Shown here: piece after piece, positions 1,339 to 43,434 of the stretch | How positions within the stretch are numbered: position 1 is the stretch's first letter | Layout of the letters: every line of letters begins with the position of its first letter | Translations under genes and position numbers: made by a program | Notes under the pieces: model-generated | Seen by the model: the letters and a program-made list of their open reading frames with translations, nothing else | The model's database searches: none | What the model was told of the DNA's origin: nothing | Assembly: GCA_022562295.1 (NCBI GenBank) | Contig: JADFPO010000014.1 | Location: 1-47,217, forward strand | From: Gemmatimonadota bacterium | GTDB taxonomy: Bacteria; Gemmatimonadota; Gemmatimonadetes; Gemmatimonadales; GWC2-71-9 | Reading direction: 5' to 3' | DNA: 47,217 nucleotides

Positions 1339-2154
1339 ATGAGTATTTCCTTCGCCAACCTGCGATACCGCGGGCTGTCTGCCCGCACGTCGGCGCAGCT
1401 CGCTGTGGCATTGCTGTTGGGATCCGGATGCCGCGTTCAAGGGGAGGCGGGCGGGGGCCAGGTGTCAAACGAGCTTGTTGCGCAGACTCCCGCGGAGGAG
1501 CTGCTGACCCGGGCGATCGCCTTCCACGATCCGGCCGGCCGGTGGGCAAGCCACATCTTCCAGCTCGAGTGGTACGGAACGGGATCCGACGGATCGGAGC
1601 GAGTGTCAGTCGACCTCACACTGCATCCCGATGGGCAGCAGTTCAAGCTCAGTGGACGCTACCAGGGATCGACCCTGGAGTACGAGGCCGATGCTGAGCA
1701 GTGGACCGCGTCGGTCGACGGGGTCAGCGACCCTGCGCAGGAAGTTCGTGAAAAGATGCGGCTCCACCGTGAGGATGGGTGGTTCTGGCGCAGTTACTAC
1801 GGGTTCCTCGTCGGAATGCCGATGAAGCTGCGAGATCCGGGCACGCAGATCGATCCCGATCCCATACCAACGACCTTCGAAGGGCACGATGTCCTCGCCC
1901 TTCGCGTTACGTACGATCAGGAGGTCGGGACGGACACGTGGTACTTTTACTTGGACCCGGACACCGCCCGGCTCGTCGGGTGCCGGTTCTATCACGACGA
2001 AGAGGCGAACGACGGGGAGTACATCGTGTTGGAGGGTTTGATCGAGTCCGACGGCGTCAAGCTTCCCCGGCACCGTCGTTGGTATGTCAACGCAGACGGT
2101 CGTTTCCTCGGTGCGGACGAGATCAGGGGGTTGGAGCTGTTAGCTGTTAGCTAA
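1339..2154 (+). CDS. hypothetical secreted protein
   Basis: ORF 1255..2154. ATG 1339 gives a signal-peptide-like N-terminus (MSISFANLRYRGLSARTSAQLAVALLLGSGC). No family recognised with confidence. The last codons (LLAVS-stop) are encoded by GCTGTTA heptads. Confidence 0.6.
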   Translation: MSISFANLRYRGLSARTSAQLAVALLLGSGCRVQGEAGGGQVSNELVAQTPAEELLTRAIAFHDPAGRWASHIFQLEWYGTGSDGSERVSVDLTLHPDGQQFKLSGRYQGSTLEYEADAEQWTASVDGVSDPAQEVREKMRLHREDGWFWRSYYGFLVGMPMKLRDPGTQIDPDPIPTTFEGHDVLALRVTYDQEVGTDTWYFYLDPDTARLVGCRFYHDEEANDGEYIVLEGLIESDGVKLPRHRRWYVNADGRFLGADEIRGLELLAVS

Positions 2155-2156
2155 CC
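2136..2156 (+). repeat. heptad tandem repeat GCTGTTA GCTGTTA GCTAACC containing the stop codon of 1339..2154
   Basis: Read directly: gctgtta(2136-2142) gctgtta(2143-2149) gctaacc(2150-2156). TAA at 2152-2154. Confidence 0.9.
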
Positions 2157-2171
2157 ATTATTAGTGGTTAG
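2151..2171. terminator. hairpin CTAACCA-ttattag-TGGTTAG between convergent genes
   Basis: 7-bp perfect stem 2151-2157 / 2165-2171 with a 7-nt AT-rich loop, between the convergent stops at 2154 and 2207. No clear U-tract. Confidence 0.45.
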
Positions 2172-2183
2172 GTTACGCTCGTA

Positions 2184-2218
2184 GCTCACGACTCACCACT
2201 CACGACTCACCACTCACG
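2184..2218 (-). repeat. five phased heptads (minus-strand sense GTGAGTN) spanning the stop codon of 2207..2776
   Basis: Plus strand reads gctcacg actcacc actcacg actcacc actcacg. The minus-strand CDS ends ...CGT GAG TGG TGA inside the tract. Confidence 0.9.
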
Positions 2219-2776
2219 GTATATCCCCAGCTGCGTCGTTCCGGAGTCCCCCGCACGTACCTCCGGTATCCAGTCGGAGATGTCGTCCCACTGTTCCACC
2301 CGCACCAACATCCCGATGAGTCCTCCCAACACGAGTCCGGCCACGGCGCCTATGCGCAGTCCTCGTCGGGTAGACTGTTCCTCGGTGAGTCGGTTGACCC
2401 GTGTGTCGCGGACCCACCCGGCGGTTGCCCCGATCGGAATACCCGCGAGGAAACCGACAACCATGCCGGTAACGGGCTTGGCTTTGGTCCCACGGCTGAC
2501 GTGCAACCGCGTCATCCACGCCCACGGCAGCTCGAAGGTCGATTCGGGAGACCGGATGCTCGTCAGCACCAGATTGTCGGGCGTCGTTTCGACGACTCGG
2601 CCAAGCACCCAGTTGGGTCCACGATTGGCGCGGGGACGAGCCGCGCGAACCAAATCCCCGCTCGCCACAAAACCGAGATCCTGAGTCGCAGCGGGGGAGG
2701 GCAGCGCCAACCCGGCTGTGGCCAATATCAGCAGGCCGAAAGCCGCCCGACCGTGAGTCGTAAAAGTCGATCGCAT
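2207..2776 (-). CDS. hypothetical exported/membrane protein with glycine-zipper C-terminal segments
   Basis: ORF 2207..2824 (the track start at 2824 is GTG and lies inside the IS inverted repeat). ATG at 2776 gives a signal-like MRSTFTTHGRAAFGLLILATAGLALPSPAA. Gly-rich hydrophobic stretches GMVVGFLAGIPIGATAG and GAVAGLVLGGLIGMLV. Confidence 0.6.
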   Translation of the reverse strand: MRSTFTTHGRAAFGLLILATAGLALPSPAATQDLGFVASGDLVRAARPRANRGPNWVLGRVVETTPDNLVLTSIRSPESTFELPWAWMTRLHVSRGTKAKPVTGMVVGFLAGIPIGATAGWVRDTRVNRLTEEQSTRRGLRIGAVAGLVLGGLIGMLVRVEQWDDISDWIPEVRAGDSGTTQLGIYREW

Positions 2777-2809
2777 CGTTGGGTGCCGTCTCAAACTGCC
2801 CAGTAAGCC

Positions 2810-2852
2810 CGACTCACCACTCACTGGAGAAGTGCCACAGGATCAGCGTCAC
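2810..2852. repeat. left terminal inverted repeat of the IS
   Basis: cgactcaccactcactggagaagtgccacaggatcagcgtcac. The outer 15 nt are GTGAGT-type heptads on the minus strand. Confidence 0.8.
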
Positions 2853-2898
2853 CCAGGTGCCATAGGATGAGCGTCGGAGTGCCACAGGATCAGCGTCA
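2832..2898 (+). repeat. three direct subterminal copies of GTGCCAYAGGATSAGCGTC inside the left IS end
   Basis: Copies at 2832-2851, 2857-2875 and 2879-2898 (spacing 25 and 22 nt). One inverted copy lies in the right end (4183-4202). Candidate transposase-binding sites. Confidence 0.75.
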
Positions 2899-2972
2899 GT
2901 ATTGTATAAGAAAACATGTGTTTGGGGGTTCAGGATGGCTAAAAAAGTCGGGTTGAGCAGCGTCGCCGAGCG

Positions 2973-4124
2973 ATGGTGGCTGCGGTGCGGCGTGGCGCGT
3001 CGATGCGAGCGGTAGCGCAGCGGTTCCATGTGCATTTGCGGACCGTGCAACGGTGGGTTCACCGGGCCAACGGCCGGCGGTTGGATCGGGTCGAATGGAG
3101 CGATCGGTCTCGCCTGGCACACACGATTCATCGCACGGATGCGACCGTAGAAGATGTGGTGCTGTCGCTCCGCCGCGAGCTGCGTGAAATCAGCGATCTG
3201 GGGGAGTATGGCGCCGTAGCGATCCATCGCGAGATGCTCACCCGCCACGATCACCGCGTCCCCGCGGTGCGGACCATCGGACGCATCCTGAGTCGGCGGG
3301 GAGCCCTAGACAGTCGCCGTCGCGTGCGTCGCCCACCACCGCCTCGAGGCTGGTATCTACCCGAGGTGGCTGCGAGCCGCGCGGAGCTAGACAGCTTTGA
3401 CATCATCGAAGGTCTGGTGATCAAGGGTGGCACCGAGGTCGAAGTGCTCAACGGCATCTCGCTGCACGGCGGGTTGGTCGCGTCGTGGCCCGGTCCACCC
3501 GTCCGCGCCACCACTATCGTCGAGGCCCTGGTCGCGCACTGGCGGCAGTTCGGGCTGCCAGCCTATGCACAGTTCGACAACGACACCCGATTCCAGGGCG
3601 CGCATCAGTTCCCTGACACCGTCGGTCGCGTCACGCGTCTGTGTTTGAGTTTGGGGGTCGTCCCGGTGTTCACGCCGCCCCGCGACATCGGGTTCCAGGG
3701 GGCGGTCGAAAGCTACAATGGACGATGGCAGGCCAAGGTGTGGGCCCGTTTCCATCATCCCACCCGGGCAGCCCTGCGGCAGCGTTCGGATCGCTACGTG
3801 GCGGCGGTCCGGCAGCGGGCAGTACTGCGCCTCGAGGCCGCCCCACCACGACGACCGTTTCCCGACGAGTGGGAGCTGGACTTGCAAGCCCGTCCGCGCG
3901 GTCGTCTGGTGTTCTTGCGGCGCTTGAGCGAGCAGGGAACGGCCGAGCTGCTGGGTCATACCTGGCGGGTTGATCCACGCTGGCCCCATCGCCTGGTGCG
4001 TGCCGAGGTCGATTTCGACGCCAACCGGATCCGCTTCTACGCGCTGCGGCGGCGCGAACCAGGGTCGCAACCTCTGTTGCAGACCGTTCCCTATCGGTTT
4101 CCTCGTCATGGCTTTCAGGAATGA
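2973..4124 (+). CDS. DDE transposase / integrase-core (rve) protein with N-terminal HTH
   Basis: HTH-like GASMRAVAQRFHVHLRTVQRWV. Core with FDIIEGL..., AQFDNDTRFQG and GAVESYNGRW (D, D, E candidates). Confidence 0.8.
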   Translation: MVAAVRRGASMRAVAQRFHVHLRTVQRWVHRANGRRLDRVEWSDRSRLAHTIHRTDATVEDVVLSLRRELREISDLGEYGAVAIHREMLTRHDHRVPAVRTIGRILSRRGALDSRRRVRRPPPPRGWYLPEVAASRAELDSFDIIEGLVIKGGTEVEVLNGISLHGGLVASWPGPPVRATTIVEALVAHWRQFGLPAYAQFDNDTRFQGAHQFPDTVGRVTRLCLSLGVVPVFTPPRDIGFQGAVESYNGRWQAKVWARFHHPTRAALRQRSDRYVAAVRQRAVLRLEAAPPRRPFPDEWELDLQARPRGRLVFLRRLSEQGTAELLGHTWRVDPRWPHRLVRAEVDFDANRIRFYALRRREPGSQPLLQTVPYRFPRHGFQE

Positions 4125-4182
4125 TCGCCAACTCTCATATGTCACATGCGTACACACTACCTGTCACTGAAACACGTCTCAA

Positions 4183-4225
4183 GTGACGCTCATCCTCTGA
4201 CACTTGTCCAGTGAGTCGTGAGTCG
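4183..4225. repeat. right terminal inverted repeat of the IS
   Basis: gtgacgctcatcctctgacacttgtccagtgagtcgtgagtcg. Its reverse complement aligns to 2810-2852. Confidence 0.8.
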
Positions 4226-4266
4226 AACATCGGCAGGTCGCACTCGGACCCCCCATCCTCCATAGC

Positions 4267-4294
4267 CTACTCACGACGACCTACTCACTACTTA
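4267..4294 (-). repeat. heptad tract (minus sense GTAAGTA GTGAGTA GGTCGTC GTGAGTA) directly after the recombinase stop codon
   Basis: Plus strand reads ctactca cgacgac ctactca ctactta. The recombinase stop TGA is at 4301-4303 on the minus strand. Confidence 0.8.
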
Positions 4295-4300
4295 CGGTCG

Positions 4301-5218
4301 TCATGCCCGCGGATGGAACGACTTGTGGGCCGATCGCAGATACTCGCGATCCACATGCGTATAGATCTGCGTCGTCGAAAGATCGGCATGGCCGAGCATT
4401 TCTTGCACGGCTCTGAGGTCGGCTCCCCCCTCGAGCATGTGGGTCGCAAAGCTGTGGCGTAGCGTGTGTGGCGTCACCTTCTTGCTGATCCCCGCGCGCT
4501 CCGCGCATTGCTTGACGATCTCCCACGCTCCCCCCCGCGTCAGCGGTCTCCCCCGCGCGTTGAGGACGAAGCGGCCGTCGGTGTTTCCCTTGTCAAGCGT
4601 GGGACGCTTTTCCCGAATGTACAGGGCAGCGGCGGCAATCGCCCGCCGACCCAGCGGAACCAGTCGCTGCTTGTCACCCTTGCCGATCACACGCACGAGG
4701 CCGTCTTCGAGCCACATATCGGGTAGCGTTAGCCCCACGAGTTCGGAAACCCGAACACCGGTCGCATATGCCACCTCGAGCATGGCGCGGTCGCGCCAAC
4801 CGAGCGTGTCGTTGGGATGATGGGCGTCAATCAAAGATTCGATTTCACGCACCGTCAACACATCGGGTAGTGTGCGCCATCCCTTCGGAATCTTGATTTC
4901 CGCACTGACATCAATCTCGGTATGGCCCTCTCCCACCAGAAATCGATAGTAGGTCCGCAGTGCCGATATCTGACGGCGAATGCTCGCAGGCGACAGGCCC
5001 AAGTCCTTCAGGTGATAGATGAATTCGCGAATCTGCGGCGCCGTGATGGTGTCGGGACCCGGGATTTTTCTCGACCACGCGAACTGAGCGAAGCGGCGAA
5101 CATCTCGCGCATAGCTTTCCACCGTGTGCGGACTACTCCCCACCTCGATACTGAGATAGTCGAGGAATCCTTCAAGCCAAAAGGCGTGCGCGATCTCAGC
5201 GTTCGTCGAGCCCGTCAT
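4301..5218 (-). CDS. site-specific tyrosine recombinase, XerC/XerD family
   Basis: C-terminal catalytic region HTLRHSFATHMLEGGADLRAVQEMLGHADLSTTQIYTHV (R-H-R-Y signature) and an N-terminal SAM-like domain. I cannot separate XerC from XerD by eye. Confidence 0.85.
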   Translation of the reverse strand: MTGSTNAEIAHAFWLEGFLDYLSIEVGSSPHTVESYARDVRRFAQFAWSRKIPGPDTITAPQIREFIYHLKDLGLSPASIRRQISALRTYYRFLVGEGHTEIDVSAEIKIPKGWRTLPDVLTVREIESLIDAHHPNDTLGWRDRAMLEVAYATGVRVSELVGLTLPDMWLEDGLVRVIGKGDKQRLVPLGRRAIAAAALYIREKRPTLDKGNTDGRFVLNARGRPLTRGGAWEIVKQCAERAGISKKVTPHTLRHSFATHMLEGGADLRAVQEMLGHADLSTTQIYTHVDREYLRSAHKSFHPRA

Positions 5219-6318: not shown

Positions 6319-6429
6319 GGCGATGATGTTAAGGGAGGAAGTGTCGTGTGGGAAGTAGGGAGCGGCATACTGTTGTGGTCGGTCTCTTCACCTTCTTACA
6401 TCCCAGGCCTCACTCCCGTATTGTGTAGC

Positions 6430-7248: not shown

Positions 7249-7311
7249 TCAACAAGGCCCTCACAATGGCCCATTCTTGCAATTGAGCCAGGTTGCGCAC
7301 ATCCTGATGTC

Positions 7312-9543: not shown

Positions 9544-9588
9544 TGGCGCGTCCGCGGTTGGCGGCGGGCTCCGCCCGAGCGCGCCTTG

Positions 9589-9999: not shown

Positions 10000-10063
10000 C
10001 TTTACAGTTCGGAGAACCCGCCGGAGTACAGGCGCCGCGTCATACCTGCATCAACGCAGGTCT

Positions 10064-11128: not shown

Positions 11129-11945
11129 CTGAAAGGAAGGAAAGTGCGCCGTCGGGCAAAGCTCCCCGCACCGCGAGCCTCCGGAAGAAACTCGTCAGCC
11201 CCTCGAGGTGTCGATACGACAGCGCATAATCCAGATCGCTCAGGTACTCCGTGCACACCTCCAGATCGATCCCGGTCGTGTCGCACGCTTCGACAGCAAG
11301 CTCGTCGAGGTGAGCAAGACCCCAATCGCGTGATCTCAGCAATGCATCATGGACCGCGCTGACTTCATCCCGATCGGCGTCGCGACGAGCCGCCCACACC
11401 GCAAACACAAATGGCAAGCCCGTCCATGTCTTCCAAACTTCGCCGAGATCATATCGGTAGGGATATGCGTGCCTGCCGGCGAGAATCAGGGCCGCGTCAC
11501 CAATGACCAGAACGGCCTCATGTGGCAGTCGAGCCAAAGCATCGAGATCCTGCCGCTCGGCCCGCGCTTCGACCAGCTTCGGCTCGATCCCCCAATAGTC
11601 GCTGCAGAGAAGCTGAACCAGATATACCGACGTCTTCGACGAAGACGATATGAGAACCGTGGCACCGCCCAGATGCGAGACTTCCTGACGGGAAAACAAT
11701 ACGACACTTCGCACCGGGCCGTCGCAAGAAATGGCGAGGTCTGGAAGCAGGTGATAACTCTTCGCGTTTCGCGCATATTCGACCGCCGACACAACCGAGA
11801 CCCCTAATTCCCCCGCCGCGAGGAGGTTGTTAAGCTCGGCGGGAGTCCCCGTGACAAATTCACTGGGATTCGTGATGAGCCCACGGTCGATTGCCCCGTA
11901 CACCGGATAACAATTGATGTACCCGATTCGCCCAACACGCATCAT
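11121..11945 (-). CDS. mqnA: chorismate dehydratase (MqnA/MqnD-family periplasmic-binding-protein-like fold)
   Basis: N-terminus MMRVGRIGYINCYPVY is the MqnA-type pattern. Start ATG 11945 overlaps the upstream stop (ATGA). The longer track ORF (to 12203) runs antisense-free but inside the upstream gene. Confidence 0.7.
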   Translation of the reverse strand: MMRVGRIGYINCYPVYGAIDRGLITNPSEFVTGTPAELNNLLAAGELGVSVVSAVEYARNAKSYHLLPDLAISCDGPVRSVVLFSRQEVSHLGGATVLISSSSKTSVYLVQLLCSDYWGIEPKLVEARAERQDLDALARLPHEAVLVIGDAALILAGRHAYPYRYDLGEVWKTWTGLPFVFAVWAARRDADRDEVSAVHDALLRSRDWGLAHLDELAVEACDTTGIDLEVCTEYLSDLDYALSYRHLEGLTSFFRRLAVRGALPDGALSFLSVA

Positions 11946-13153: not shown

Positions 13154-13156
13154 GCC

Positions 13157-27858: not shown

Positions 27859-27859
27859 T

Positions 27860-28012
27860 CTCCACCACTCCACTCCACTCCACACCCGGCGGGCCCCTAC
27901 CACACCGCCACACCGCCCGGCGGGCCCCCGCCGCTCTTCTACCCATCCCGGCGGGCAGCCAGTACCGCCCACCTGCCCATCTGCCCACCTGCCCGCCCGC
28001 CCGCCTGCCCGC
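27860..28012. repeat. convergent intergenic region built almost entirely of short-period repeats (pentamers, a motif spaced at 31 nt, octamers)
   Basis: CCACT x3-4 at 27866-27885. cccggcgggc at 27885, 27916 and 27947 (spacing exactly 31). Six phased octamers CYGCCCRY at 27965-28012 abut the stop at 28013-28015. Confidence 0.85.
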
Positions 28013-29863: not shown

Positions 29864-30148
29864 GGCCTCAAACGCCGCCGCGGTTAGGTCGGCTCTTCCG
29901 GTGTCCACGAAACCGTTGCGTCGGTTTACCCCGTCACCCCCGCGCCACACCGTGTCGCGGTCCCCGTCATCGTCCGCGAGACCTCACCGGCTAACGGTCG
30001 AACGGGTTAATTCAAAGTCCCGGGCGCGGAAAAAACAACCTCATCGAGCCGGCCGCCCGATGCGCTTCCCCTTCTCGGCCGAACACCGTATTCTAGCCGA
30101 GCCCTGATCGCCGTCATCCTTACGGGGACTACATCGCGAGCGACAACA

Positions 30149-30862
30149 ATGACCTATAGAACCGCACTGCGCGCACTGATTGTCGGACTCACCGGCAGCG
30201 TTCTCACGCACACGCCAGCCCTAGCCCGGCAGGAAATGAATCGGTTGACCGCATCCGAGCGCGCCGACGGATGGGAGCTCTTGTTCGATGGTGACACCAC
30301 TGACGAATGGCGAGGCTTCCGCCAGGATTCGATGCCCGACGGATGGAAGGTCGTCGATGGCGCCCTTACGAGGGTCGCGCCGGCCGGCGATATCATCACC
30401 AAAAAGCAGTTCAAGAACTTCGAGCTGCAACTCGAGTGGAAGATCGCCGAGGCCGGTAATAGCGGCATCATGTTTCGGGTCACCGAAGACCAGCGGCGCG
30501 CCTGGCTCAGCGGACCCGAGATGCAGGTATTGGACGACGCCAGGCATAGGGACGGCCAAGTTCCGGAGACGTCGGCCGGGTCCAACTACGGGTTGCACGC
30601 GCCGAAACCCGGAGCGGTGCGCGCTGCCGGTTCCTGGAACTCCGTGCGGCTGCTCGTCCGCGAAAGCCACGTTGAACACTGGCTCAATGGAGTCAAGGTC
30701 GTCGAATACGAGTTGGAGAGCCCCGAATGGGAGCGTTTGGTGTCGCAAACCAAGTTCGACACCATCCCTTCGTATGGGCGCCAGCGGACCGGCCACATCG
30801 CACTGCAGGATCACGGCGACCGAGTGGCCTATCGGAACATCAAGATCAAGCGTCTGCCATGA
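30149..30862 (+). CDS. DUF1080 (3-keto-disaccharide hydrolase family) secreted protein
   Basis: Signal peptide. [40 protein letters not shown] and [21 protein letters not shown] are the typical DUF1080 pattern. Confidence 0.8.
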
Positions 30863-32055
30863 GCAGCATCCGGGTGAGACTGTCCACCATGATGTTCTTG
30901 CAGTATTTCATTTGGGGAGCATGGTGGGTGACACTCGGGACTTACTTGGGACAAACCCTTCAGTTCGACGGCCGGCAGATCGGGTTTGCTTACGGAACCA
31001 TGGCCATCGCCGCCATGATTTCTCCGTTCTTCGTCGGGATGATCGCAGACCGATTCTTCTCCACAGAGCGGATCCTCGCGGCGCTGCACATCGTGGGAGG
31101 CGTGATCCTGTACGCAGGATCCACGCGGCTGTCGTTCGGTCAGCTCTATCCCGTCATCATCTTGTACGCTCTGCTGTACATGCCGACGTTGGCGCTCACG
31201 AACTCGATTTCTTTCCACCATTTAGAAGATGGTGCCCGAGAATTCCCACGGGTTCGGGTATGGGGAACCATCGGGTGGATCGTCGCCGGAATCCTCGTCG
31301 GGCGCCTGGGTTTGGAAGCGAGGGTGATCCCCATGCAGATCGCCGCGGGAGCCTCGATCGTAACTGGCCTGTACTGCCTTATTCTCCCTCACACACCTCC
31401 CAAAGCCGCCGGTGGACCAGTCAAGGCACGTGACGTTCTGGGCCTCGACGCGCTTTCCCTCATGAAAGACCGCTCCTTCGCGATCTTCGTCATCGGGTCG
31501 CTCTTGCTGTCGATTCCACTTCAGTTCTACTATACCTTCACCAACCTCTTCTTGAACGAACTCGGCATGGCAGAGCCGGCCACGAAGATGACCGTGGGTC
31601 AAATGTCGGAGATCGTCTTCATGGTGTTGATGCCCTGGTTTCTACTCCGACTCGGCGTGAAGAAGATGCTGCTCGTGGGGATGCTGGCGTGGACGCTGCG
31701 GTACGTCCTGTTCGCGTTCGGGAACGTCGGCAGCATGGTATGGATGCTCTACCTCGGTATTCTGCTACATGGGATATGCTACGATTTCTTCTTCGTAACC
31801 GGGCAGATTTACGTAGACCAAAAGGCACACGAAAAGATCCGTGCGGCGGCACAGGGGTTTATCGCGTTCGTCACGCTAGGTGTGGGGTTGTTTATCGGGG
31901 CGTTGGTTTCGGGAGCCGTGGTGGAGGCGTACACTATCACGGGCGGCACCGTGCCGCATGACTGGCGCACGATTTGGTTGATCCCCGCGATTGGCGCTGC
32001 AGGGATACTGGCACTCTTTGCGGTGATGTTCCGACCAGAACACAGTGAGTCGTGA
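30859..32055 (+). CDS. MFS transporter, nucleoside:H+ symporter (NHS) family
   Basis: ATG 30859 overlaps the upstream stop (ATGA). [20 protein letters not shown] is the NHS-type N-terminus. 12 TM-like segments. The last codons H-S-E-S-stop lie in GTGAGT heptads. Confidence 0.75.
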
Positions 32056-32114
32056 GTGGTGAGTCGGGTGAGTAGCACAGCCATCGGCCAGTGGCTAAGA
32101 GCTGATAGCTGAAA
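32045..32114 (+). repeat. heptad tracts GTGAGTN x4 (32045-32074) and GCTAAGA GCTGATA GCTGAAA (32094-32114)
   Basis: Read directly. The transporter stop TGA 32053-32055 lies inside the second heptad. Confidence 0.9.
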
Positions 32115-32137
32115 AACCAACTAACGAGGAGCACAAC

Positions 32138-33475: not shown

Positions 33476-33672
33476 CCAGCTGATGTCGTCTGTAGTCGCG
33501 AGCTGCGCGCAGCCACCTAACTACGCAAGGCTCACAGCCCATGGATGAGACAATCCACTGGCCACCCTCCTGCCAGCGAGCAGAACCAATCCTTGAAGAA
33601 GATCGTCGTTGTCATGGCCCCCAGCTGACTCAAGTCCGAAGGAACCCAGGCCGATATTCCATCATGAAACCT

Positions 33673-33712
33673 GCGGGTAAACCCGCGGCTCGACCATCTG
33701 TCCGTAAGTGAC
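33673..33712 (+). repeat. degenerate forward copy of the two-hairpin repeat family (variant first hairpin GCGGG-taaa-CCCGC)
   Basis: gcgggtaaacccgcggctcgaccatctgtccgtaagtgac shares the CGGCTCG..ATCTGTC core with 41639-41684. Confidence 0.6.
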
Positions 33713-33723
33713 GTCTCGACAAC

Positions 33724-33769
33724 GTCGCTTCAGCGACAGAACAGCCGAGCCGCGACTATCAGTCGCGAG
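33724..33769 (-). repeat. full 46-nt two-hairpin repeat (reverse orientation), ending 9 nt before the gdh ATG
   Basis: gtcgcttcagcgacagaacagccgagccgcgactatcagtcgcgag. Palindromes GTCGCT-tc-AGCGAC (33724-33737) and CGCGACT-atc-AGTCGCG (33751-33767). Its reverse complement matches 41639-41684 with about 4 differences. Confidence 0.85.
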
Positions 33770-33778
33770 CGATCACCA

Positions 33779-35194: not shown

Positions 35195-35200
35195 CCGCAG

Positions 35201-35221
35201 AGTGGAAATTGGAGAGTGGAT
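35201..35221 (+). repeat. heptads AGTGGAA ATTGGAG AGTGGAT after the gdh stop
   Basis: Read directly. gdh TAG at 35192-35194. Inverted relative to 36529-36549. Confidence 0.8.
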
Positions 35222-35274
35222 TTATCCTGTAGTTGGTGCTCCCTGGTCTTCCCCCGGCTTGATGGACACGCAGT

Positions 35275-36153
35275 TTACGCAGCCCGCCGCGTTTGTGCGA
35301 GCTGAGCGGCGTACTCCACCGGTGTCCGATACCCGAGACTCGAATGCCGACGTTGCCGATTGTACCAGACCTCGATGTATTCAAACAGGTCGCGCGACGC
35401 TTCCCGGCGCGTTTGCCAGTCCGCCTCGGCGACCAATTCCCATTTCAGCGTGGCCATGAAACTCTCCACGACGGCGTTATCCCAACAGTTGCCCCGCCGA
35501 CTCATGCTGACCGCAATGCCCTGCGCCGCCAGGCGGTCGCGGTAGGTGCGACACGCGTACTGCACGCCCCGATCCGAATGGTGCAGCCCGCCCCCGCCAC
35601 CCTCGCGCTCCAGCGCCATGTCGAGCGCCGCCAGCGTGATGTCGTGCTGTAACGACGACCGCACCGCCCAGCCCACCACCTGCCGGTTGCCAACATCTAG
35701 AATCACCGCCAGATACAGCCACCCCTCCCGCGTGGGGAGGTACGTCAGATCCGCGGCCCATACCCGCTCGGCGCCCTGCCGGCCCACGGCAAACTGGCGA
35801 GCCAAGATATTGGGAGCCGGCGCATAGGCGTGGTCCGACTCCGTGGTCACCCGGAACCGGCGCCGTTTCTTGGCGCGCAGCCCGTCGGCCCGCATCAGCC
35901 GCTCCACCCGCTTCTTGCCACACCGCAGCCCCCGCGCCCGCAACTCGTGATATACCCGCGGGCTACCGTAGCGCCGCCGACTCTCCCGGTGAATCGTGCG
36001 AATCTCTACTCGAAGTCGCTGATCGTGTCGTGTCCGCGCGCTCGGGGCACGACGGTACGCCGCGTAGAACCCCGACCGACTCACCCCCAACACCCGACAC
36101 ATCATCGTCACCGGAAATCTGCCACGGTGCGACGCAATACACGCGTACTTCAC
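35275..36153 (-). CDS. IS3-family transposase OrfB (rve integrase core)
   Basis: WAADLTYLPT, HHSDRGVQY, GNCWDNAVVESF and YNRQRRHSSLGYRTP, typical of IS3 OrfB. In the -1 frame relative to orfA. Confidence 0.9.
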   Translation of the reverse strand: MKYACIASHRGRFPVTMMCRVLGVSRSGFYAAYRRAPSARTRHDQRLRVEIRTIHRESRRRYGSPRVYHELRARGLRCGKKRVERLMRADGLRAKKRRRFRVTTESDHAYAPAPNILARQFAVGRQGAERVWAADLTYLPTREGWLYLAVILDVGNRQVVGWAVRSSLQHDITLAALDMALEREGGGGGLHHSDRGVQYACRTYRDRLAAQGIAVSMSRRGNCWDNAVVESFMATLKWELVAEADWQTRREASRDLFEYIEVWYNRQRRHSSLGYRTPVEYAAQLAQTRRAA

Positions 36154-36449
36154 GGCGACTCCTGCGCGAAGAACACTGCCGCTTTTTTTAAGAAATCGCG
36201 CTCCTGCCTGACCCGTTCAAGCTCCCGACGCAGCTGCCGCGTCTCGTCCTCCGGCCCCGTCGCAGTGCCCTGGCCCGGAAACACCGTAGCCGGGGCCCGC
36301 TTCTCTACCTGCTGCTTCCACTTATGCAGCAAGCTCGGGGCAATCCCGAGATCACGCGCCACCTCCGCCAGCGAACGCTCCGACTCCACAGCCAGTTGGA
36401 CCGCCTCCAGCTTGAACTCCTTTGCATACTGCCGTCGCTGCTTGACCAT
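36150..36449 (-). CDS. IS3-family transposase OrfA (HTH)
   Basis: MVKQRRQYAKEFKLEAVQL...LGIAPSLLHKWKQQ. The start was moved to ATG 36449 because the track start 36515 lies outside the IS end. Confidence 0.85.
   Translation of the reverse strand: MVKQRRQYAKEFKLEAVQLAVESERSLAEVARDLGIAPSLLHKWKQQVEKRAPATVFPGQGTATGPEDETRQLRRELERVRQERDFLKKAAVFFAQESP
36183..36189 (-). other. A7 slippery heptamer (A AAA AAA G) for programmed -1 frameshifting orfA->orfB
   Basis: Minus strand reads ...ttc TTA AAA AAA GCG.... A hand translation after a -1 slip runs KKSGSVLRAGVAVKYACIAS straight into the OrfB frame. Confidence 0.75.
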
Positions 36450-36514
36450 GAACACCTCCCCACGGATTGTAGGACATCTCCTAACCATGTGTCCACCAAA
36501 CCGGGGGAGGCCCA

Positions 36515-36556
36515 CCCAATCTCAAATTCCCACTCGCCAATTTCCAATCTCCAATC
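36515..36556 (-). repeat. six phased heptads (minus sense AGATTGG type) after the M20 peptidase stop
   Basis: Plus strand reads cccaatc tcaaatt cccactc gccaatt tccaatc tccaatc. Peptidase TAG at 36566-36568. Confidence 0.85.
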
Positions 36557-36565
36557 TATTGGCCG

Positions 36566-37891: not shown

Positions 37892-37898
37892 ACGGCCT

Positions 37899-37947
37899 CC
37901 GATTTCCAATCTCCACTTTTCATTCTGCAATCTCCAATCTCCAATCT
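37899..37947 (-). repeat. seven phased heptads (minus sense AGATTGG type) filling the gap after the Gfo/Idh/MocA stop
   Basis: Plus strand reads ccgattt ccaatct ccacttt tcattct gcaatct ccaatct ccaatct. Stop TAG at 37948-37950. Confidence 0.9.
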
Positions 37948-39186
37948 CTACCGCCATTCCCCCTTTGCCACCGCCGGCACGAACGCATCGAGATCCGCCG
38001 GTGGAAAGTCGATGGTCCTCCCCTGCTCCGCGCTCATATAGGCCGTCATGAGAATCTGCATCACCTCGACACCGTCGTCGAACGTCAACGCGGGCTGTTG
38101 GTCGTTCAGAAACGCCTGCGTGAAGTGACGGTTCTCGGCTTCGTACCCGTATGCGGTCCACTCGTCGGGAATGACCGGCATGAGGCCCACCTCGGCATTC
38201 TGTTTCTCGACCAGGTCTTCACCGGCTTCGCCGGACACTTCACGACTAAAGAACAACTTGAGCCCGCTCTCCAACGTGTTCCACGACATCGAGTATTCCG
38301 GCCCGAGCAGCTCGGCGGAGAGCCGCAATCCAGCCCCGACAAAACACCACGACGTTGTGACCTCACCTAAGAGCGGTGTACCGTCTTCGGTAACGTACTC
38401 GATCGTCGCGCTCGCAAAATCCTCCGCGGGACGCTTTCCGTAATCGACTTCGTCACCCATCATCTGAGCGAGCTTCTCCACGTACTCCGGGCGTGTCCAC
38501 TTCAGACTCGCGATGCGGGCCGTCACTCTCACCGGCCGGATCGAGGAGCGAGGAGCGCCGGGTTCGGTCAGCAGATGGCGCACGACCTCGACGGAGTGAC
38601 ACATCATGTCGGTCAACACACCGCCACCCTGCAGGTCCGCGCGCCAGAACCACGGCATATGCGGACCGCTGTGTTCTTCCGCCGCACGAGCCAGGTATGG
38701 ACGTCCGGTCAACGCGGCGCCTCGCGCCCAAATCAGATCGCGTCCCCGCACGACGTGCGGCGTGAAGAGTTGGTTCTCCAAGTACCCGTGGCTCAGATCG
38801 GCACTCTTGACGAGTTCGGTTACCGTGCGCGCCTCCCCCACCGTTCGCGCAAGCGGCTTCTCGCACGCAATGCCCTTCAGCGACCCCCTCCCCGCCTTGA
38901 TGGCGTCCACGACCTCCTCGACGTTCTCGATTCGCGCGTGATTGGGTCCGCACAACCAGATCGCATCGATGCTCGGGTCATCGACCATGTCGGCGATGGA
39001 CGAATATGGCTTGGCTTCCCCGACATTGAGGGTGCGTGCAAGATCGGCAGCGTCGGCAGCGTTGGCAGCGTTGGGACTGAAGATCCCCCGCACGTCCGCG
39101 TCTCGCACGCCGATTAGGGATTGGATGTGAAATCGAGCGTTGAATCCGCTGCCGATGAAGCCGATGCCGAGTCGTGATCGGGGCAT
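37948..39186 (-). CDS. Gfo/Idh/MocA-family oxidoreductase (cytoplasmic type)
   Basis: LGIGFIGSGFNARFH Rossmann N-terminus, CEKPLA motif, 412 aa. Confidence 0.85.
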   Translation of the reverse strand: MPRSRLGIGFIGSGFNARFHIQSLIGVRDADVRGIFSPNAANAADAADLARTLNVGEAKPYSSIADMVDDPSIDAIWLCGPNHARIENVEEVVDAIKAGRGSLKGIACEKPLARTVGEARTVTELVKSADLSHGYLENQLFTPHVVRGRDLIWARGAALTGRPYLARAAEEHSGPHMPWFWRADLQGGGVLTDMMCHSVEVVRHLLTEPGAPRSSIRPVRVTARIASLKWTRPEYVEKLAQMMGDEVDYGKRPAEDFASATIEYVTEDGTPLLGEVTTSWCFVGAGLRLSAELLGPEYSMSWNTLESGLKLFFSREVSGEAGEDLVEKQNAEVGLMPVIPDEWTAYGYEAENRHFTQAFLNDQQPALTFDDGVEVMQILMTAYMSAEQGRTIDFPPADLDAFVPAVAKGEWR

Positions 39187-39195
39187 GATTTCTCT

Positions 39196-39265
39196 CTGTT
39201 GGCTATCAGCTATCAGCTATCAGCTGTGGTAACGGTTAGATCACTACTCACTACTCACTACTCAC
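39196..39265 (-). repeat. ten consecutive in-phase heptads occupying almost the whole intergenic gap
   Basis: Plus strand reads ctgttgg ctatcag x3 ctgtggt aacggtt agatcac tactcac x3. The upstream gene's stop (39258-39260) lies inside the last units. Confidence 0.92.
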
Positions 39266-39869
39266 GTTCCCCATAGCTCACCCCCAACTTCCGAAGTTGC
39301 TCCTCCGGACACCCATCCCACTCAGTTGCCACGTTGCCGAGATACTGTAGGTCCTCTACACCCATTCGGCTGGACCAAAAACCGCTCGCCGTCAAATCGC
39401 GAAAGGAGGTGAAGAACGCGACACCGTGGCTCAGCTCGGGCCGCGCTCGCTCCGGCCACGCCAGCTCGTCCAAAAGTTCGGTACGCTGCGCCTCGGTGCA
39501 CTCCACGAAGGTGCTCCCGAACCGCCGCTTGCACTGCACGTCGATCCACGCGAGACCACCCCTCATGGCTGTCTGCCGACCCTGTTGATCGGCCACAATG
39601 AAGTCCATGAACTCCGGCACACCGGCGTCGGTGGCGCTGCCGGACCGTTCGTCGCGCGGCAAGATGAGATTGACGAGGATTCGAACCGTCTCGTACTCGT
39701 GCGCTGTAAAGAATTGGGGCTCGAACTGGGCACCTGCACCCGCCGCCTTGCGTGTGGCGAGCACCGCACCGCGGGCGCGTTCCACCTCTTGTGGCGTCCA
39801 ATCGAACGCCATCGCCAGCGGGGCGGCGGCGAGGAGTCTCACCATCTCACGCCGCTGCATGTTGCGCAT
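39258..39869 (-). CDS. gluconate 2-dehydrogenase subunit 3-family small subunit with a Tat signal
   Basis: MQRREMVRLLAAAPLAMA twin-arginine leader. ~200 aa, immediately downstream of and overlapping (1 nt, TAATG) the GMC flavoprotein gene. Confidence 0.75.
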   Translation of the reverse strand: MRNMQRREMVRLLAAAPLAMAFDWTPQEVERARGAVLATRKAAGAGAQFEPQFFTAHEYETVRILVNLILPRDERSGSATDAGVPEFMDFIVADQQGRQTAMRGGLAWIDVQCKRRFGSTFVECTEAQRTELLDELAWPERARPELSHGVAFFTSFRDLTASGFWSSRMGVEDLQYLGNVATEWDGCPEEQLRKLGVSYGERE

Positions 39870-41572: not shown

Positions 41573-41638
41573 GCGTTCCCGGTTCGGGTCGTAATCTGGT
41601 GCAGGAACGGCGTTGGCGCGAGTCGAGGGTCGAGGTTT

Positions 41639-41684
41639 CTCGCGACTGAGAGTCGCGGCTCGGCTATCTGTCGCTGAAAGCGAC
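41639..41684 (+). repeat. full 46-nt two-hairpin repeat, 66 nt upstream of the GMC start (reverse orientation relative to that gene's strand)
   Basis: ctcgcgactgagagtcgcggctcggctatctgtcgctgaaagcgac. Hairpins CGCGACT-gag-AGTCGCG (41641-41657) and GTCGC-tgaaa-GCGAC (41670-41684). Confidence 0.85.
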
Positions 41685-41907
41685 GGCTGAGCATAACCCT
41701 GCCTCGCGCAGCCCCTTCAGCCATCAGTATCTTAACGCCTCCAGCATACGCGGAACGGCCCTTCCGTATTGTCTTGCTAGAATCCGTGGAAACCCGACCC
41801 CAGCAACCAGCCAAAACGACCACGGTCGTAGTCTTCCTCTGGCGTCCCACGCATTGAGCCGCTGGTAATTACGCAGACTGGGAACCACAAGGACGGCTCA
41901 AACGCCC

Positions 41908-42233
41908 ATGTCCCGGCCCTACAAAGCTGCGATCGCTTCCAGTGGGTTGACTATTTATGACCCCATCGAGATGGGACACCCCACTCTTTGGATTCCGTCG
42001 CGTGATCTACAAGAGCTTCTCAAGAACTCCCTTGCTGGAACATCGCTCGCCGGTCCCCAATCAGGACGCGCTCCAAGGTTGTAAAGACACTCGTAGCTCA
42101 AGCCCTTGGCTATCCAATACGCTCGAGCTTCCGGAAAACACAACCCCGTTTCCCGGGGCAAAACTTCGACACCTATGTCCAGAAATCCAATTATCTGCAG
42201 ATCTGGAACGAAGCCGCCTGTCACGACGGCTAA
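41908..42233 (+). pseudogene. frameshifted, 3'-truncated fragment of a conserved-looking gene (possibly nuclease/restriction-endonuclease-like) with lower GC
   Basis: Frame 1 (41908-42084) reads MSRPYKAAIASSGLTIYDPIEMGHPTLWIPSRDLQELLKNSLAGTSLAG...stop. The sense continues in another frame (42048-42233) as RRSPIRTRSKVVKTLVAQALGYPIRSSFRKTQPRFPGQNFDTYVQKSNYLQIWNEAACHDG-stop. Hand count is 150 G+C in 280 nt for 41951-42230. Confidence 0.5.
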
Positions 42234-42236
42234 AGC

Positions 42237-42267
42237 CGCGGCTCGGCTATCTGTCGCTGAAAGCGAC
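42237..42267 (+). repeat. 31-nt partial copy (second hairpin module) of the two-hairpin repeat, followed by a T5 run
   Basis: cgcggctcggctatctgtcgctgaaagcgac is identical to 41654-41684. Followed by ctttttg. Confidence 0.85.
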
Positions 42268-42301
42268 CTTTTTGTTCAGTCGCCTTGGTGACGGTCGGAG
42301 C

Positions 42302-42325
42302 GCCGAGCCGTGGGTTTACCCGTGG
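42302..42325 (-). repeat. reverse-orientation variant module (CACGGGTAAACCCACGGCTCGGC)
   Basis: The reverse complement of gccgagccgtgggtttacccgtgg resembles 33672-33692 (ctgcgggtaaacccgcggctcg). Confidence 0.55.
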
Positions 42326-42362
42326 TGATCCCGTGCGGGGCCCCCGTTACGACAGTTGAAGC

Positions 42363-42393
42363 CGCCCCTCGGCTATCTGTCGCTGAAAGCGAC
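42363..42393 (+). repeat. 31-nt partial copy of the two-hairpin repeat
   Basis: cgcccctcggctatctgtcgctgaaagcgac. Three mismatches to 42237-42267, all in the first 6 nt. Confidence 0.85.
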
Positions 42394-42422
42394 GACGAAG
42401 CTGAGCGTGCGTCGATGGAAGT

Positions 42423-42440
42423 CCCGCCCTGAAGGGCGGG
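42423..42440. terminator. GC hairpin CCCGCCC-tgaa-GGGCGGG downstream of the isomerase gene
   Basis: Perfect 7-bp stem with a GNRA-like 4-nt loop, about 70 nt after the stop at 42510 (minus). No U-tract on either strand. Confidence 0.4.
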
Positions 42441-42453
42441 CTCCCCCGCAACA

Positions 42454-42509
42454 TCAACACCCGACACCCGACACCTGACACCTATCCCCCATCCCCTATC
42501 CCCCATCCC
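42454..42509 (-). repeat. eight phased heptads of two families (minus sense GGGATRG x4 then GTGTCRG x3-4) abutting the isomerase stop
   Basis: Plus strand reads tcaacac ccgacac ccgacac ctgacac ctatccc ccatccc ctatccc ccatccc. Stop TAG at 42510-42512. Confidence 0.92.
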
Positions 42510-43361
42510 CTAAAACCTCAATCCCTCGAGATACTCATAACTCACCCTTATCGACTCAAACTGCTCCGCCGGCCGATCGTGTTCCACGAAAAAGTGTCGG
42601 ATCCCTGCGCTCTCGCGCTCGGCGAAGATCGCCGCGAAGTCGATGCTTCCCTGCCCTACATCCACCATGGCACCGTTCGGCAAGCCATCCATGTCCTTCA
42701 CGTGCACCGACGGAAACCGTCCCGGATACCGCGAAAAATATTCCAACGGATCACGGCCACCCCGGATGATCCAAAAGAGGTCCATCTGTAGCAACACGTG
42801 CTGGCTATCGCTTTCGGCAATCAGCACGTCGTAGGGGACTTGGCCCTCGAGAAGCGCGAATTCCGCAGCGTGATTGTGATAGCCGAACGAGATTCCCGCC
42901 TCTCGCGCCCGCTCCCCGGCTCTATTGAACACGTCCGCCACTCGCTGGTACCCCGCAATGGACTCGGTCACCGACCGGGGCAGACCGGGGCAGATCAGGT
43001 AGTCGTGCCCGACCACGTTGGCGGTCTCGAGGATGGGTCCCCAGTCGTCACCCAGTACCTCATAGGAGACATGCGCAGAAGGCGCGCGCAACCCTACGTC
43101 ATCGAGCACCGCGCGTACGGCCGCAGGGGGCCGGCCGAAATAGCCGGCAAATTCGACCTCGGCGTACCCGATTGCGGCTACACGCCGCAGCGTCCCCTCG
43201 AAGTCATCCCCCATGGCCTGGCGCACGGTGTAGAGTTGGACGCCAATCCGATCCAGGGTTCCCGCGGCCCTGGTCGTAGCACCCCGAGCGTCACAGGCTA
43301 GACCCGCTGCCCCGAGGGCACCGGCGCTCAACGTCTTGAGGAACGTGCGACGATCCGACAT
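42510..43361 (-). CDS. sugar phosphate isomerase/epimerase (xylose-isomerase-like TIM barrel) with a Tat signal
   Basis: MSDRRTFLKTLSAGALGAAGLA twin-arginine leader. IGVQLYTV, GYAEVEF and FGYHNH patterns of the AP-endonuclease-2/XI-like TIM family. Confidence 0.8.
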   Translation of the reverse strand: MSDRRTFLKTLSAGALGAAGLACDARGATTRAAGTLDRIGVQLYTVRQAMGDDFEGTLRRVAAIGYAEVEFAGYFGRPPAAVRAVLDDVGLRAPSAHVSYEVLGDDWGPILETANVVGHDYLICPGLPRSVTESIAGYQRVADVFNRAGERAREAGISFGYHNHAAEFALLEGQVPYDVLIAESDSQHVLLQMDLFWIIRGGRDPLEYFSRYPGRFPSVHVKDMDGLPNGAMVDVGQGSIDFAAIFAERESAGIRHFFVEHDRPAEQFESIRVSYEYLEGLRF

Positions 43362-43406
43362 TGTGGAGACTCGCTAGAGTTTGTGTTTGACGAGCGCTAC
43401 CTGCCC

Positions 43407-43434
43407 CGGCGACCGGTGACGGGTGGACGGTGAC
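43407..43434. repeat. four phased heptads CGGCGAC CGGTGAC GGGTGGA CGGTGAC
   Basis: Read directly. Lies between the macro-like gene stop (43519) and the isomerase start (43361). Confidence 0.7.

Follow-up and report, generated by a model that had tools for sequence, protein, structure and literature searches.

Why do so many genes on a single Gemmatimonadota contig end on, or within a few nucleotides of, a run of tandem seven-nucleotide units? The stretch that raises this question (contig JADFPO010000014.1; hereafter, the window) comprises 47,217 bases at approximately 62% G+C and makes up one whole contig of a metagenome-assembled genome (MAG), the nearest named protein relatives of which are labeled as Gemmatimonadetes, Gemmatimonadales, or Gemmatimonadaceae MAGs. 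An earlier note on this DNA had described phased heptamer tracts on or directly after the stop codons of many genes, a description confirmed here by Tandem Repeats Finder (TRF), a self-similarity scan, and shuffled sequence. These tracts are a Gemmatimonadota instance of a described, though poorly understood, class of bacterial heptamer repeats.

Tracts were detected with TRF and with our own self-similarity scan at periods 4–12, using 30 shuffles as a control. TRF returned period-7 arrays at 2135–2152, 2185–2218, 4211–4225, 32045–32066, 35199–35220, 36516–36557, 37897–37948, 39202–39225, 39241–39265, 42457–42482, and 42484–42510. The self-similarity scan recovered five strong segments at period 7, zero or one at each other period, and none in the 30 shuffles. 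Fourteen tracts are considered solid, all 14 of which lie within or border intergenic sequence, itself 3.85 kb (8%) of the window. The tracts at 4267–4294 and 35201–35221 are weak taken singly but are backed by orthologous tracts in relatives. An additional tract claimed at 43407–43434 is treated as a chance occurrence, because neither method finds it and its orientation would be antisense. The solid tracts are as follows.

T1, 2136–2156, plus strand: GCTGTTA GCTGTTA GCTAACC, encoding the last codons and TAA stop of the DUF6503 gene (1255–2154); found by TRF.
T2, 2184–2218, minus strand: (GTGAGTN)×5 in minus sense, holding the stop of the Gly-zipper gene (2207–2824); found by TRF.
T3, 2811–2825, minus strand: two GTGAGTN units, truncated by the left end of an IS481-like element.
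T4, 4210–4225, plus strand: two-unit remnant of a (GTGAGTN)×4 tract.
T5, 4267–4294, minus strand: degenerate GTGAGTA type, 6 nt past the stop of the XerC-like gene (4301–5218); inverted partner of T4.
T6, 32045–32074, plus strand: (GTGAGTN)×4, holding the TGA stop of the nucleoside symporter gene (30859–32055).
T7, 32094–32114, plus strand: GCTGATA/CTGATAG-type block, 23 nt 5′ of the ATG of the GFO/IDH/MocA gene at 32138.
T8, 35199–35221, plus strand: AGAGTGG AAATTGG AGAGTGG, 4 nt past the stop (35194) of the glutamate dehydrogenase (GDH) gene; 5′ arm of an inverted pair with T9.
T9, 36515–36557, minus strand: (AGATTGG-like)×6 in minus sense, 8 nt past the M20 peptidase stop (36566).
T10, 37899–37948, minus strand: (AGATTGG-like)×7, bounded by the GFO stop (37948) on one side and by the M20 gene's GGAGG Shine–Dalgarno sequence and GTG start (37891) on the other.
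T11a, 39241–39265, minus strand: (GTGAGTA)×3.5, holding the TAG stop of the gluconate-2-dehydrogenase subunit-3 gene (39258–39869).
T11b, 39202–39225, minus strand: (CTGATAG)×3.4, 15 nt 5′ of the ATG of a GFO gene (39186), sharing its 7-nt register with T11a.
T12a, 42484–42510, minus strand: (GGGGATR)×4, adjoining the TAG stop of the iolE-like gene (42510–43361); a predicted match to the G-quadruplex motif.
T12b, 42457–42483, minus strand: (GGTGTCR)×4, contiguous with T12a.

At least five unrelated unit families occur within these 47 kb, and unit types recur between loci as had been claimed, with GTGAGTN at six window sites; in T2, matches at a 14-nt period reach 100%. Continuous phase, also claimed, is seen across 39196–39265 and in L135, a contig from a relative described below; inspection shows that it is lost between 32045–32074 and 32094–32114, where there is an internal 2-nt insertion.

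Six genes have their stop codon inside or abutting a tract (DUF6503, 2154; Gly-zipper, 2207; symporter, 32055; GFO, 37948; gluconate-2-dehydrogenase subunit 3, 39258; iolE-like, 42510), and three more (GDH, M20 peptidase, and XerC) are followed by a tract starting 4–8 nt past the stop. For all nine of these stop-linked cases the sense strand is the G-rich, C-poor strand of the unit, as the earlier note had it; the rule covers every tract within 30 nt of a stop, and across the window clade the count is 13 sense versus 1 antisense. The CTGATAG-type blocks at 32094–32114 and 39202–39225 lie closer to the start of the next gene (23 and 15 nt, respectively) than to the preceding stop. Replication-strand bias was rejected as the cause of the polarity: tract orientation follows gene strand, with plus- and minus-sense tracts interleaved inside 10 kb and, at convergent gene pairs, inside as little as 100 nt.

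The window was mapped with Pfam and NCBIfam scans. The map comprises a short-chain dehydrogenase, the DUF6503 and Gly-zipper proteins, the IS481-like element, the XerC-like recombinase, IspF, and a Ser/Thr kinase, and an mqn–fab–ndk–suc block occupies the minus strand. A sugar/inositol catabolic cluster includes a 3-keto-disaccharide hydrolase, the nucleoside symporter, GFO/IDH/MocA oxidoreductases, a GMC oxidoreductase with its small subunit, and the iolE-like protein; GDH, the M20 peptidase, and an IS3-family element are also present. No heptamer tract was found in the fab/suc/mqn block, where spacers are mostly below 65 nt, and TRF agrees with the original statement that these operons lack them. 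A different repeat arrangement occurs in the convergent spacer 27859–28012, the plus strand of which is C-rich and carries (CCACT)×3.8, (CCACACCG)×2.2, and (GCCCACCT)×6. For the minus-strand gene at 28013–29950 this spacer keeps the logic of a G-rich sense strand after the stop, with repeat periods of 5 and 8; the repeat next to the plus-strand PorV-like gene is C-rich in sense, and there the logic fails. The spacer is nearly identical, with one substitution, in the related scaffold L001. Two long spacers, 41573–42509 (937 nt) and 33476–33778 (303 nt), are without a Pfam-supported gene or an Rfam match; the former contains an unannotated 123-aa open reading frame (ORF; 41957–42328) and two terminator-like hairpins. 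An Rfam search of the whole window matched no known RNA family.

Placement and polarity were then surveyed in other genomes. A pattern scan for GTGAGTNGTGAGTNGTGAGT, taking one genome per species, returned at least 120 loci; the groups represented among the matches listed include Gemmatimonadales, many Bacteroidota, Planctomycetota, Cyanobacteria, Chloroflexota, Acidobacteriota, Verrucomicrobiota, Armatimonadota, and Proteobacteria. Genes at the comparison loci (200 loci) were called with our own simple self-trained ORF caller, which reproduced the pipeline gene ends in L135. Among the matches listed, period-7 tracts of all kinds within 30 nt of a gene 3′ end (120 loci) number 68 in sense versus 10 in antisense (p ~ 1e−11); for co-directional sense (GTGAGTN)n tracts the median distances are 8.5 nt to the preceding stop and 130 nt to the following start (Wilcoxon p = 5e−5), whereas antisense tracts lie a median of 98 nt from the stop and 53.5 nt from the start, a difference that is not significant (p = 0.17). 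At convergent pairs, 17 of 19 of these listed tracts are closer to the gene for which they are in sense, and intragenic tracts comprise 0 sense versus 14 antisense. Where a stop precedes the tract, the distance is 21 nt or less in 17/30 sense versus 5/31 antisense cases (p = 0.0013). A sample of soil Gemmatimonadota (874 kb of contigs fetched via the GFO orthologue) holds 45 period-7 tracts, compared with at most nine at any other period from 4 to 12; 31 of these 45 are intergenic, the coding fraction of the contigs being 92%. Divergent spacers contain approximately 0.13 tracts each, versus approximately 0.35 for other spacer types.

Part of the stop-on-tract effect is compositional. A unit-by-unit frame check found the C-poor strand to be rich in stops, because stop triplets contain no C, and its complement to be nearly stop-free. 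All three frames are closed by GTGAGTN, CTGATAG, and GCTGTTA units; since 7 is coprime with 3, three GTGAGTN or CTGATAG units are enough to close all three, and the complement closes none. The C-poor, stop-rich composition and the period of 7 thus explain why frames end in GTGAGTN and CTGATAG tracts, which are never intragenic in sense. However, three-frame stopping was rejected as a full explanation: the AGATTGG, AGAGTGG, and GGTGTCR units, together with the TGCGGAA, GCGGAAC, and GATTGCG arms of relatives, close no frame or only one and yet lie 0–13 nt past stops, and the stop-free AGATTGG, AGAGTGG, and TGCGGAA are as near to stops as the other units. The Shine–Dalgarno-like GGAG was also rejected as a general tract property; it is present in AGATTGG, AGAGTGG, GGGAGTA, and TGCGGAG units and absent from GTGAGTN, CTGATAG, and GGTGTCR. 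Runs of three Gs in each of at least four units are found in T12a (GGGGATR ×4) and in (GGGAGTA)×4 of L135 alone; GTGAGTN, CTGATAG, AGATTGG, and GGTGTCR have no such runs.

Some of the tracts occur as inverted pairs. With a partner within 200–250 nt, the G-rich arm comes first, on either strand, in 47 cases and second in none (19:0 for GTGAGTN, among the matches listed; 28:0 in Gemmatimonadota). The two window pairs, T5/T4 and T8/T9 (21 nt at 90% complementarity), both lie at convergent gene ends, and both are disrupted by insertion sequence (IS) elements. T5/T4 in its IS-free form, taken from the close relative L127, folds as a stop-to-stop hairpin (dG −45.9, z −3.06); the T8/T9 spacer, with the IS3 element removed in silico, yields a dG of −34.2 and a z of −4.4, and its counterpart in L135 a z of −4.9. 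Eight soil relatives carry a heptamer-armed hairpin 0–13 nt past the orthologous GFO stop (dG −34 to −74 kcal/mol, z −4.9 to −12.1). The 5′ arm of these hairpins is G-rich, built of (TGCGGAA/TGCGGAG)n, (GCGGAAC)n, or (GATTGCG)n, and the 3′ arm is the complementary array; both arms change together and are complementary in each lineage.

These stem-loops differ from canonical terminators. The features of an intrinsic terminator are present in part: a GC-rich stem-loop is found at paired tracts only, and no U-tract was found after the stems, the 12-nt tails of which are without a T run. Canonical hairpin-plus-U terminators are not enriched (14 terminator-like sites vs. 12.4 expected by chance). 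The unpaired co-directional tracts T6, T10, T11, and T12 fold no better than shuffles, T10 (z = −0.7) being effectively unstructured. The idea that the GTGAGTA block of one spacer pairs with the CTGATAG block there was also considered and rejected, as that spacer folds no better than shuffles. Two further hairpins lie beside tracts, and the plus transcript of the T1/T2 spacer (2130–2225) folds with z = −3.6.

2151–2171, no strand assigned: small hairpin, CTAACCA–loop–TGGTTAG, between convergent T1 and T2.
42423–42440, minus strand: GC-rich hairpin, CCCGCCC–TGAA–GGGCGGG, just 3′ of T12 on the same transcript and separate from the tract.

Comparison with relatives demonstrates that the tracts are real, inherited, and slippage-prone. 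Three independent assemblies from different samples (L127–L129, ~99% identity) carry XerC-proximal tracts that are base-for-base identical to those of the window. L135, the GFO orthologue of which has 85% amino acid identity, shares the gene order and has tracts of the same unit families in the same spacers, in other counts: past the symporter, (GTGAGTC)×5 versus ×4 in T6, followed by a CTGATAG block longer than T7, with CTGATAG counts of three in the window versus six to seven in L135; past GDH, (AATTGG-type)×3; and past the small dehydrogenase subunit, GTGAGTA(GGGAGTA)3 and then a longer CAGCTGA/TAGCTGA block before the GFO start. The comparison of orthologous spacers called for by the earlier note thus reveals variation in unit number, exemplified by the spacer past GFO (T10), with AGATTGG-like ×7 in the window, (AGAGTGG)×17 in L134 (97% identity), and (AGAGTGG)×3 in L135. 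One entire spacer of L135 is a single array in 7-nt phase, its units changing step by step from GTGAGTA to GATAGCT, which suggests a single array diverging and locally re-homogenizing.

More distant relatives, at 77–78% identity, contain 0–1 tracts per 12–21 kb, compared with 8 in the 47-kb window and 5 in 10 kb of L135. In these relatives the symporter/GFO spacer holds (ATATTCA)5 or a version 14 nt shorter, and the (ATATTCA)n tracts of L136 and L138 differ in length by exactly 14 nt. Tract abundance is therefore lineage-specific, and the changes are of whole units. Units at orthologous sites also differ in sequence (GTGAGTA vs. GGGAGTA; AGATTGG vs. AGAGTGG vs. TGCGGAA; ATATTCA elsewhere); tract position is kept in relatives at 69–85% identity while the unit turns over. 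Similar tracts are carried by long-read, chromosome-level MAGs, among them the Gemmatimonadales chromosome OZ252244.1 with (GTGAGTG)×22. The perfect (GTGAGTG)n arrays of this chromosome include one of ~22 units (L125, 6001–6156), which begins 5 nt past a predicted gene end in sense orientation, and one of ~11 units (L048, 4580–4661). Exact-protein look-ups succeeded for NDK and YgbB only; those aimed at the right half of the window retrieved no contig from a sister strain.

Several described repeat systems resemble these tracts. Mazel and colleagues are said to have reported, in 1990, the short tandemly repeated repetitive (STRR) heptamer families of heterocystous cyanobacteria, with units CCCCAGT, TTGGTCA, and CAACAGT. 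The earlier note had offered STRRs as the only analogue, and the analogy stands insofar as the window has an STRR-like system, here at 3′ ends and on the sense strand: tandem heptamers, several families per genome, and intergenic location are shared. However, the phylum is different and the window units match none of the three STRR units. The accompanying statement that such tracts were undescribed as a 3′-end feature in high-GC, non-cyanobacterial genomes fails in light of Xanthomonas (Rehm et al., 2015; PMC4692102), and also of Mrazek et al. (2007) and Geobacter metallireducens. The Xanthomonas GGGAATC repeats are 89–93% intergenic at a mean of 28 nt from the upstream ORF, which is far nearer to them than the next ORF, prefer the coding strand downstream of ORFs, are rare between divergent genes, form frequent convergent inverted pairs, and vary in length and sequence between sister species at the same spacers; no regulatory effect was found for the repeats studied (Rehm et al., 2015). 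With the Nostoc GGGGAYT unit, these constitute the closest description, sharing with the window placement, strand preference, divergent scarcity, convergent pairs, and turnover; (GGGGATR)×4 of T12a is almost the Nostoc unit itself. In contrast to the Rehm units, which form G-quadruplexes, most window units (GTGAGTN, CTGATAG, AGATTGG, GGTGTCR) cannot form canonical ones in the absence of G3 runs, and several unit families coexist. Co-directional repeats in Xanthomonas are also approximately evenly split between strands, whereas those of the window lineage are almost entirely in sense.

Heptamers were the top class of long simple sequence repeat (SSR) in most genomes rich in repeats of 5–11 nt, according to the survey of Mrazek, Guo, and Shah (2007) as summarized in PMC4679880; as summarized there and in PMC4692102, the ten richest genomes include Burkholderia, Xanthomonas, and Actinobacteria, with Gemmatimonadota not among them, and an origin by slippage was proposed. 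The window tracts have the attributes of the unit-7 class, being tandem beyond chance, mainly non-coding, and variable in copy number by whole units; they share with the surveyed SSRs the dominance of heptamers, non-coding location, scattered phylogenetic distribution, and proposed slippage origin. Stop adjacency, strand polarity, and hairpin pairing do not feature in the survey as summarized. G. metallireducens contains GGGACCG ×4 at 49 loci and arrays of five MTYCTGA units, annotated as putative regulatory elements (PMC2700814); as in the window, 4–5 tandem heptamers are dispersed through a non-cyanobacterial genome, but their copy number is fixed, some are intragenic, and no stop-codon rule is reported. 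Identity with repetitive extragenic palindromes or bacterial interspersed mosaic elements was rejected, as tandem heptamers are not palindromic units and no Y1 transposase occurs among the 40 window proteins (Pfam).

On balance, we consider it somewhat more probable than not that the tracts are heptamer SSR arrays built by slippage, of which paired arrays form the arms of 3′-end stem-loops and unpaired arrays are C-poor spacers or orphan arms. Heptanucleotide SSRs would arise and be remodeled by replication slippage in the spacer that starts at the stop codon. Where a G-rich arm at the stop is matched by a complementary C-rich arm, the transcript would form a long, U-less stem-loop, running from stop to stop at convergent genes; because periodic arms are complementary in any register, slippage can lengthen or shorten such a stem without destroying it. 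The paired stem-loop most likely defines or protects the mRNA 3′ end and, by analogy, may be a terminator or block 3′-exonucleases. U-less stem-loops protect the 3′ ends of Rho-terminated transcripts in Escherichia coli (Dar & Sorek, 2018; PMC6061677). Like the paired tracts, the E. coli structures are stable, lie shortly past genes, and have no uridine tail; they are ordinary palindromes, however, whereas the window arms are tandem heptamers.

Unpaired tracts between co-directional genes are unstructured, C-poor stretches and most likely act as permissive inter-cistronic spacers or are orphan arms. C-poor RNA is a poor substrate for Rho loading; unpaired C-poor arrays would accordingly load Rho poorly, and several carry GGAG beside the downstream start. 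A putative RNA 3′-end or stability role, one of those the earlier note had raised, is plausible. A hybrid of pyrimidine RNA with purine DNA is weak, and a purine-rich 5′ arm followed by a pyrimidine-rich 3′ arm would favor extraction of the RNA from such a hybrid. A broader generalization—that the tracts are widespread, stop-adjacent, slippage-self-adjusting, G-arm-first RNA elements, acting in paired form as U-independent terminators or 3′ protectors and at some loci as coupling hairpins that mask the start of the next gene, and in unpaired form as C-poor, Rho-refractory spacers, with polarity set by the mechanics of RNA extraction—is tentative, and we consider it rather unlikely.

Several observations weigh against the stem-loop and spacer reading. 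About two thirds of tracts are unpaired, and pairs are equally frequent at convergent and co-directional spacers (paired fraction approximately one third in both), which a simple operon-end terminator model does not predict; the related proposal that pairs mark operon ends and single tracts mark internal junctions finds no support in the same fractions. Unpaired soil Gemmatimonadota tracts near stops show no strand bias (4 sense vs. 5 antisense). The hairpin of soil locus L194 (11231–11300) appears to overlap the Shine–Dalgarno sequence and GTG start of the next gene. As stop-rich tracts in sense end any frame, our gene caller inflates stop adjacency for GTGAGTN, and the pattern loci were chosen for a single unit type. 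Finally, transcription through the tracts, the position of 3′ ends, and any effect on stability are predicted from sequence.

The overlap in L194 has parallels. In soil loci L199, L215, L195, L166, L181, L184, and L204 (~11230–11350), as in L194, the post-GFO hairpin may contain a Shine–Dalgarno sequence formed by GGAG within the unit, together with a GTG start; the downstream gene encodes a DUF1080-like secreted protein, and the 3′ arm would encode the beginning of its signal peptide. At some loci, the hairpin could be a translational-coupling device rather than a terminator.

Of the rival explanations, the one that survives best holds that the tracts are neutral slippage products without function, arising from a polymerase-linked slippage bias and surviving only where harmless, with polarity arising from a filter by which stop-rich strands cannot be read as a frame and C-rich untranslated RNA is disfavored. 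We regard this as a possible but rather unlikely account. Unit number and sequence turn over rapidly, unit types are numerous and unrelated, and the scarcity of tracts at 77–78% identity and the lack of sense bias among unpaired soil tracts, both noted above, are as neutrality would have it; Rehm et al. (PMC4692102) likewise saw no regulatory effect for their repeats. Against this, position is retained at 69–85% identity despite the sequence turnover, the paired arms co-change so as to remain complementary in each lineage, and tolerance alone would hardly yield 47:0 G-arm-first pairs or the 0–13 nt stop distance of stop-free units.

Less probable still is the proposal that the arrays are bound by a sequence-specific RNA- or DNA-binding protein as part of a post-transcriptional regulon, as has been proposed for TAACTGA in Beggiatoaceae and for the Nostoc heptamer repeats that precede recF and recO. 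Beyond these precedents in the literature, such a binder could account for the recurrence of a few unit types at unrelated loci (GTGAGTN, six sites) and for the CTGATAG blocks 15–23 nt 5′ of two GFO/IDH/MocA starts, which are kept in L135; CTGATAG is moreover a rotation of TAACTGA with one mismatch. However, at least five unrelated unit families coexist in 47 kb; orthologous sites bear different units, which a specific binder would not tolerate; and the genes linked to tracts share no function. The TAACTGA direct repeats occur in Beggiatoaceae, Cyanobacteria, and Bacteroidetes, and some overlap the end of the upstream ORF (MacGregor, 2015; PMC4679880). The CTGATAG of T7 and T11b matches the rotated unit (CTGATAA) at 6/7 positions, short of unit identity, and lies like TAACTGA in forward orientation upstream of a start codon. 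But TAACTGA sets mostly end ~1 nt before the start, replacing the ribosome-binding site, whereas the CTGATAG blocks stop 15 and 23 nt short of the ATG and are divided from it by a distinct purine-rich Shine–Dalgarno sequence, and most window tracts are stop-proximal where TAACTGA sets are start-proximal. CTGATAG/CTGATAA blocks occur before two GFO/IDH/MocA starts in both the window (32094–32114, 39202–39225) and L135 (2268–2285, 6465–6502), and also in a Vulcanimicrobiota MAG and a Bacteroidota MAG (L039, ~6340–6380; L122, 1115–1135 and 2857–2891).

The relationship of tracts to mobile elements bears on a third alternative. Two IS elements lie in the window, one at each of its inverted tract pairs.

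2826–4209, plus strand: IS481-like element; transposase 2973–4124 (383 aa, under the NCBIfam cut-off); three 22-nt subterminal repeats at 2831–2898.
35244–36514, minus strand: IS3-family element; orfA 36150–36515, orfB 35275–36153; 3-bp target duplication CCC; inverted repeats TGGNCNTCCCCCGG...

The IS481-like element interrupts a (GTGAGTN)4 tract past its second unit: L127–L129 are identical to the window as far as 4210, beyond which they hold the remainder of the tract; the tract in these IS-free relatives lies directly 3′ of the TAG stop of a convergent Metallophos gene. At its opposite end, the element adjoins a different, inverted tract (T3), and gene order changes there relative to L127–L129, which carry Metallophos and BMC-shell genes; no direct target duplication was found at the window copy. 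This arrangement suggests an IS-mediated rearrangement. A third copy, in L134 (~30–1390), has the same junction, ACTCAC(T/C) abutting GGAGAAGTGCCAC, and all three junctions read ACTCAC(T/C) abutting GGA(G/C)AAGTG in the same phase of (GTGAGTN)n, which the element appears to target in fixed phase. The IS3-family element separates arms T8 and T9, adjoining the inner edge of T9, in the spacer between the convergent GDH and M20 genes. The earlier suggestion of insertion hot spots is thereby borne out, as both IS elements of the window lie in tract elements. The inverted GTGAGT units at both IS481-like ends, the repeated junction in L134, and the IS3 element between two arms might be taken to mean that tracts derive from mobile elements, as IS termini, sequences of the type of miniature inverted-repeat transposable elements, or transposition footprints. 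That origin is very improbable and largely refuted: since L127–L129 hold an intact (GTGAGTN)×4 at the insertion site, the tract is older than the IS481-like insertion; most tracts have no IS nearby; and the IS3 element has its own 3-bp duplication at the arm edge. Tracts are insertion targets, not insertion products.

A contingency role, in which slippage would switch adjacent genes by phase variation, is more doubtful again. The earlier note had raised slippage-prone contingency sequence; the slippage part holds, as unit number differs among relatives, but the contingency part does not, because unit changes past a stop alter no frame. Tracts start at or after stops and the first in-frame stop falls within the first one or two units, leaving proteins unchanged; the downstream Shine–Dalgarno-to-start spacing lies outside the tracts; the neighbors are housekeeping or catabolic enzymes rather than surface structures; and phase variation was similarly disfavored in Xanthomonas (Rehm et al., PMC4692102). 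That the tracts are artefacts of short-read metagenome assembly has a negligible probability, for although contigs tend to break at tracts and the window itself ends in a repeat, L127–L129 carry identical tracts in independent assemblies, homologous tracts occupy orthologous spacers in more distant relatives, and the long-read OZ252244.1 has similar ones. By arithmetic, the related 30.7-kb scaffold L001 would terminate near window positions 4330 and 35070, beside both IS/tract sites, and the window end (47143–47214) consists of CCCCGG and CCCCGCCCCCAG repeats; assemblies seem to be broken by repeats. Heptamer tracts can also yield spurious or mis-started gene calls: in L134 (2725–3132), a public gene caller gave a 136-aa product starting within the (AGAGTGG)17 array.

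Reports of heptamer repeats began in 1990 with cyanobacteria and were later extended to Xanthomonas, Burkholderia, Geobacter, and Beggiatoaceae; these data add the Gemmatimonadota. In practical terms, the tracts attract IS insertions, break short-read assemblies, and mislead gene callers. Any explanation must account for three regularities: tracts begin at stop codons, are G-rich on the sense strand, and, where they form inverted pairs, always place the G-rich arm first. If the paired arrays are indeed 3′-end stem-loops, they would help explain how mRNA ends are defined in high-GC bacteria without hairpin-plus-U terminators.

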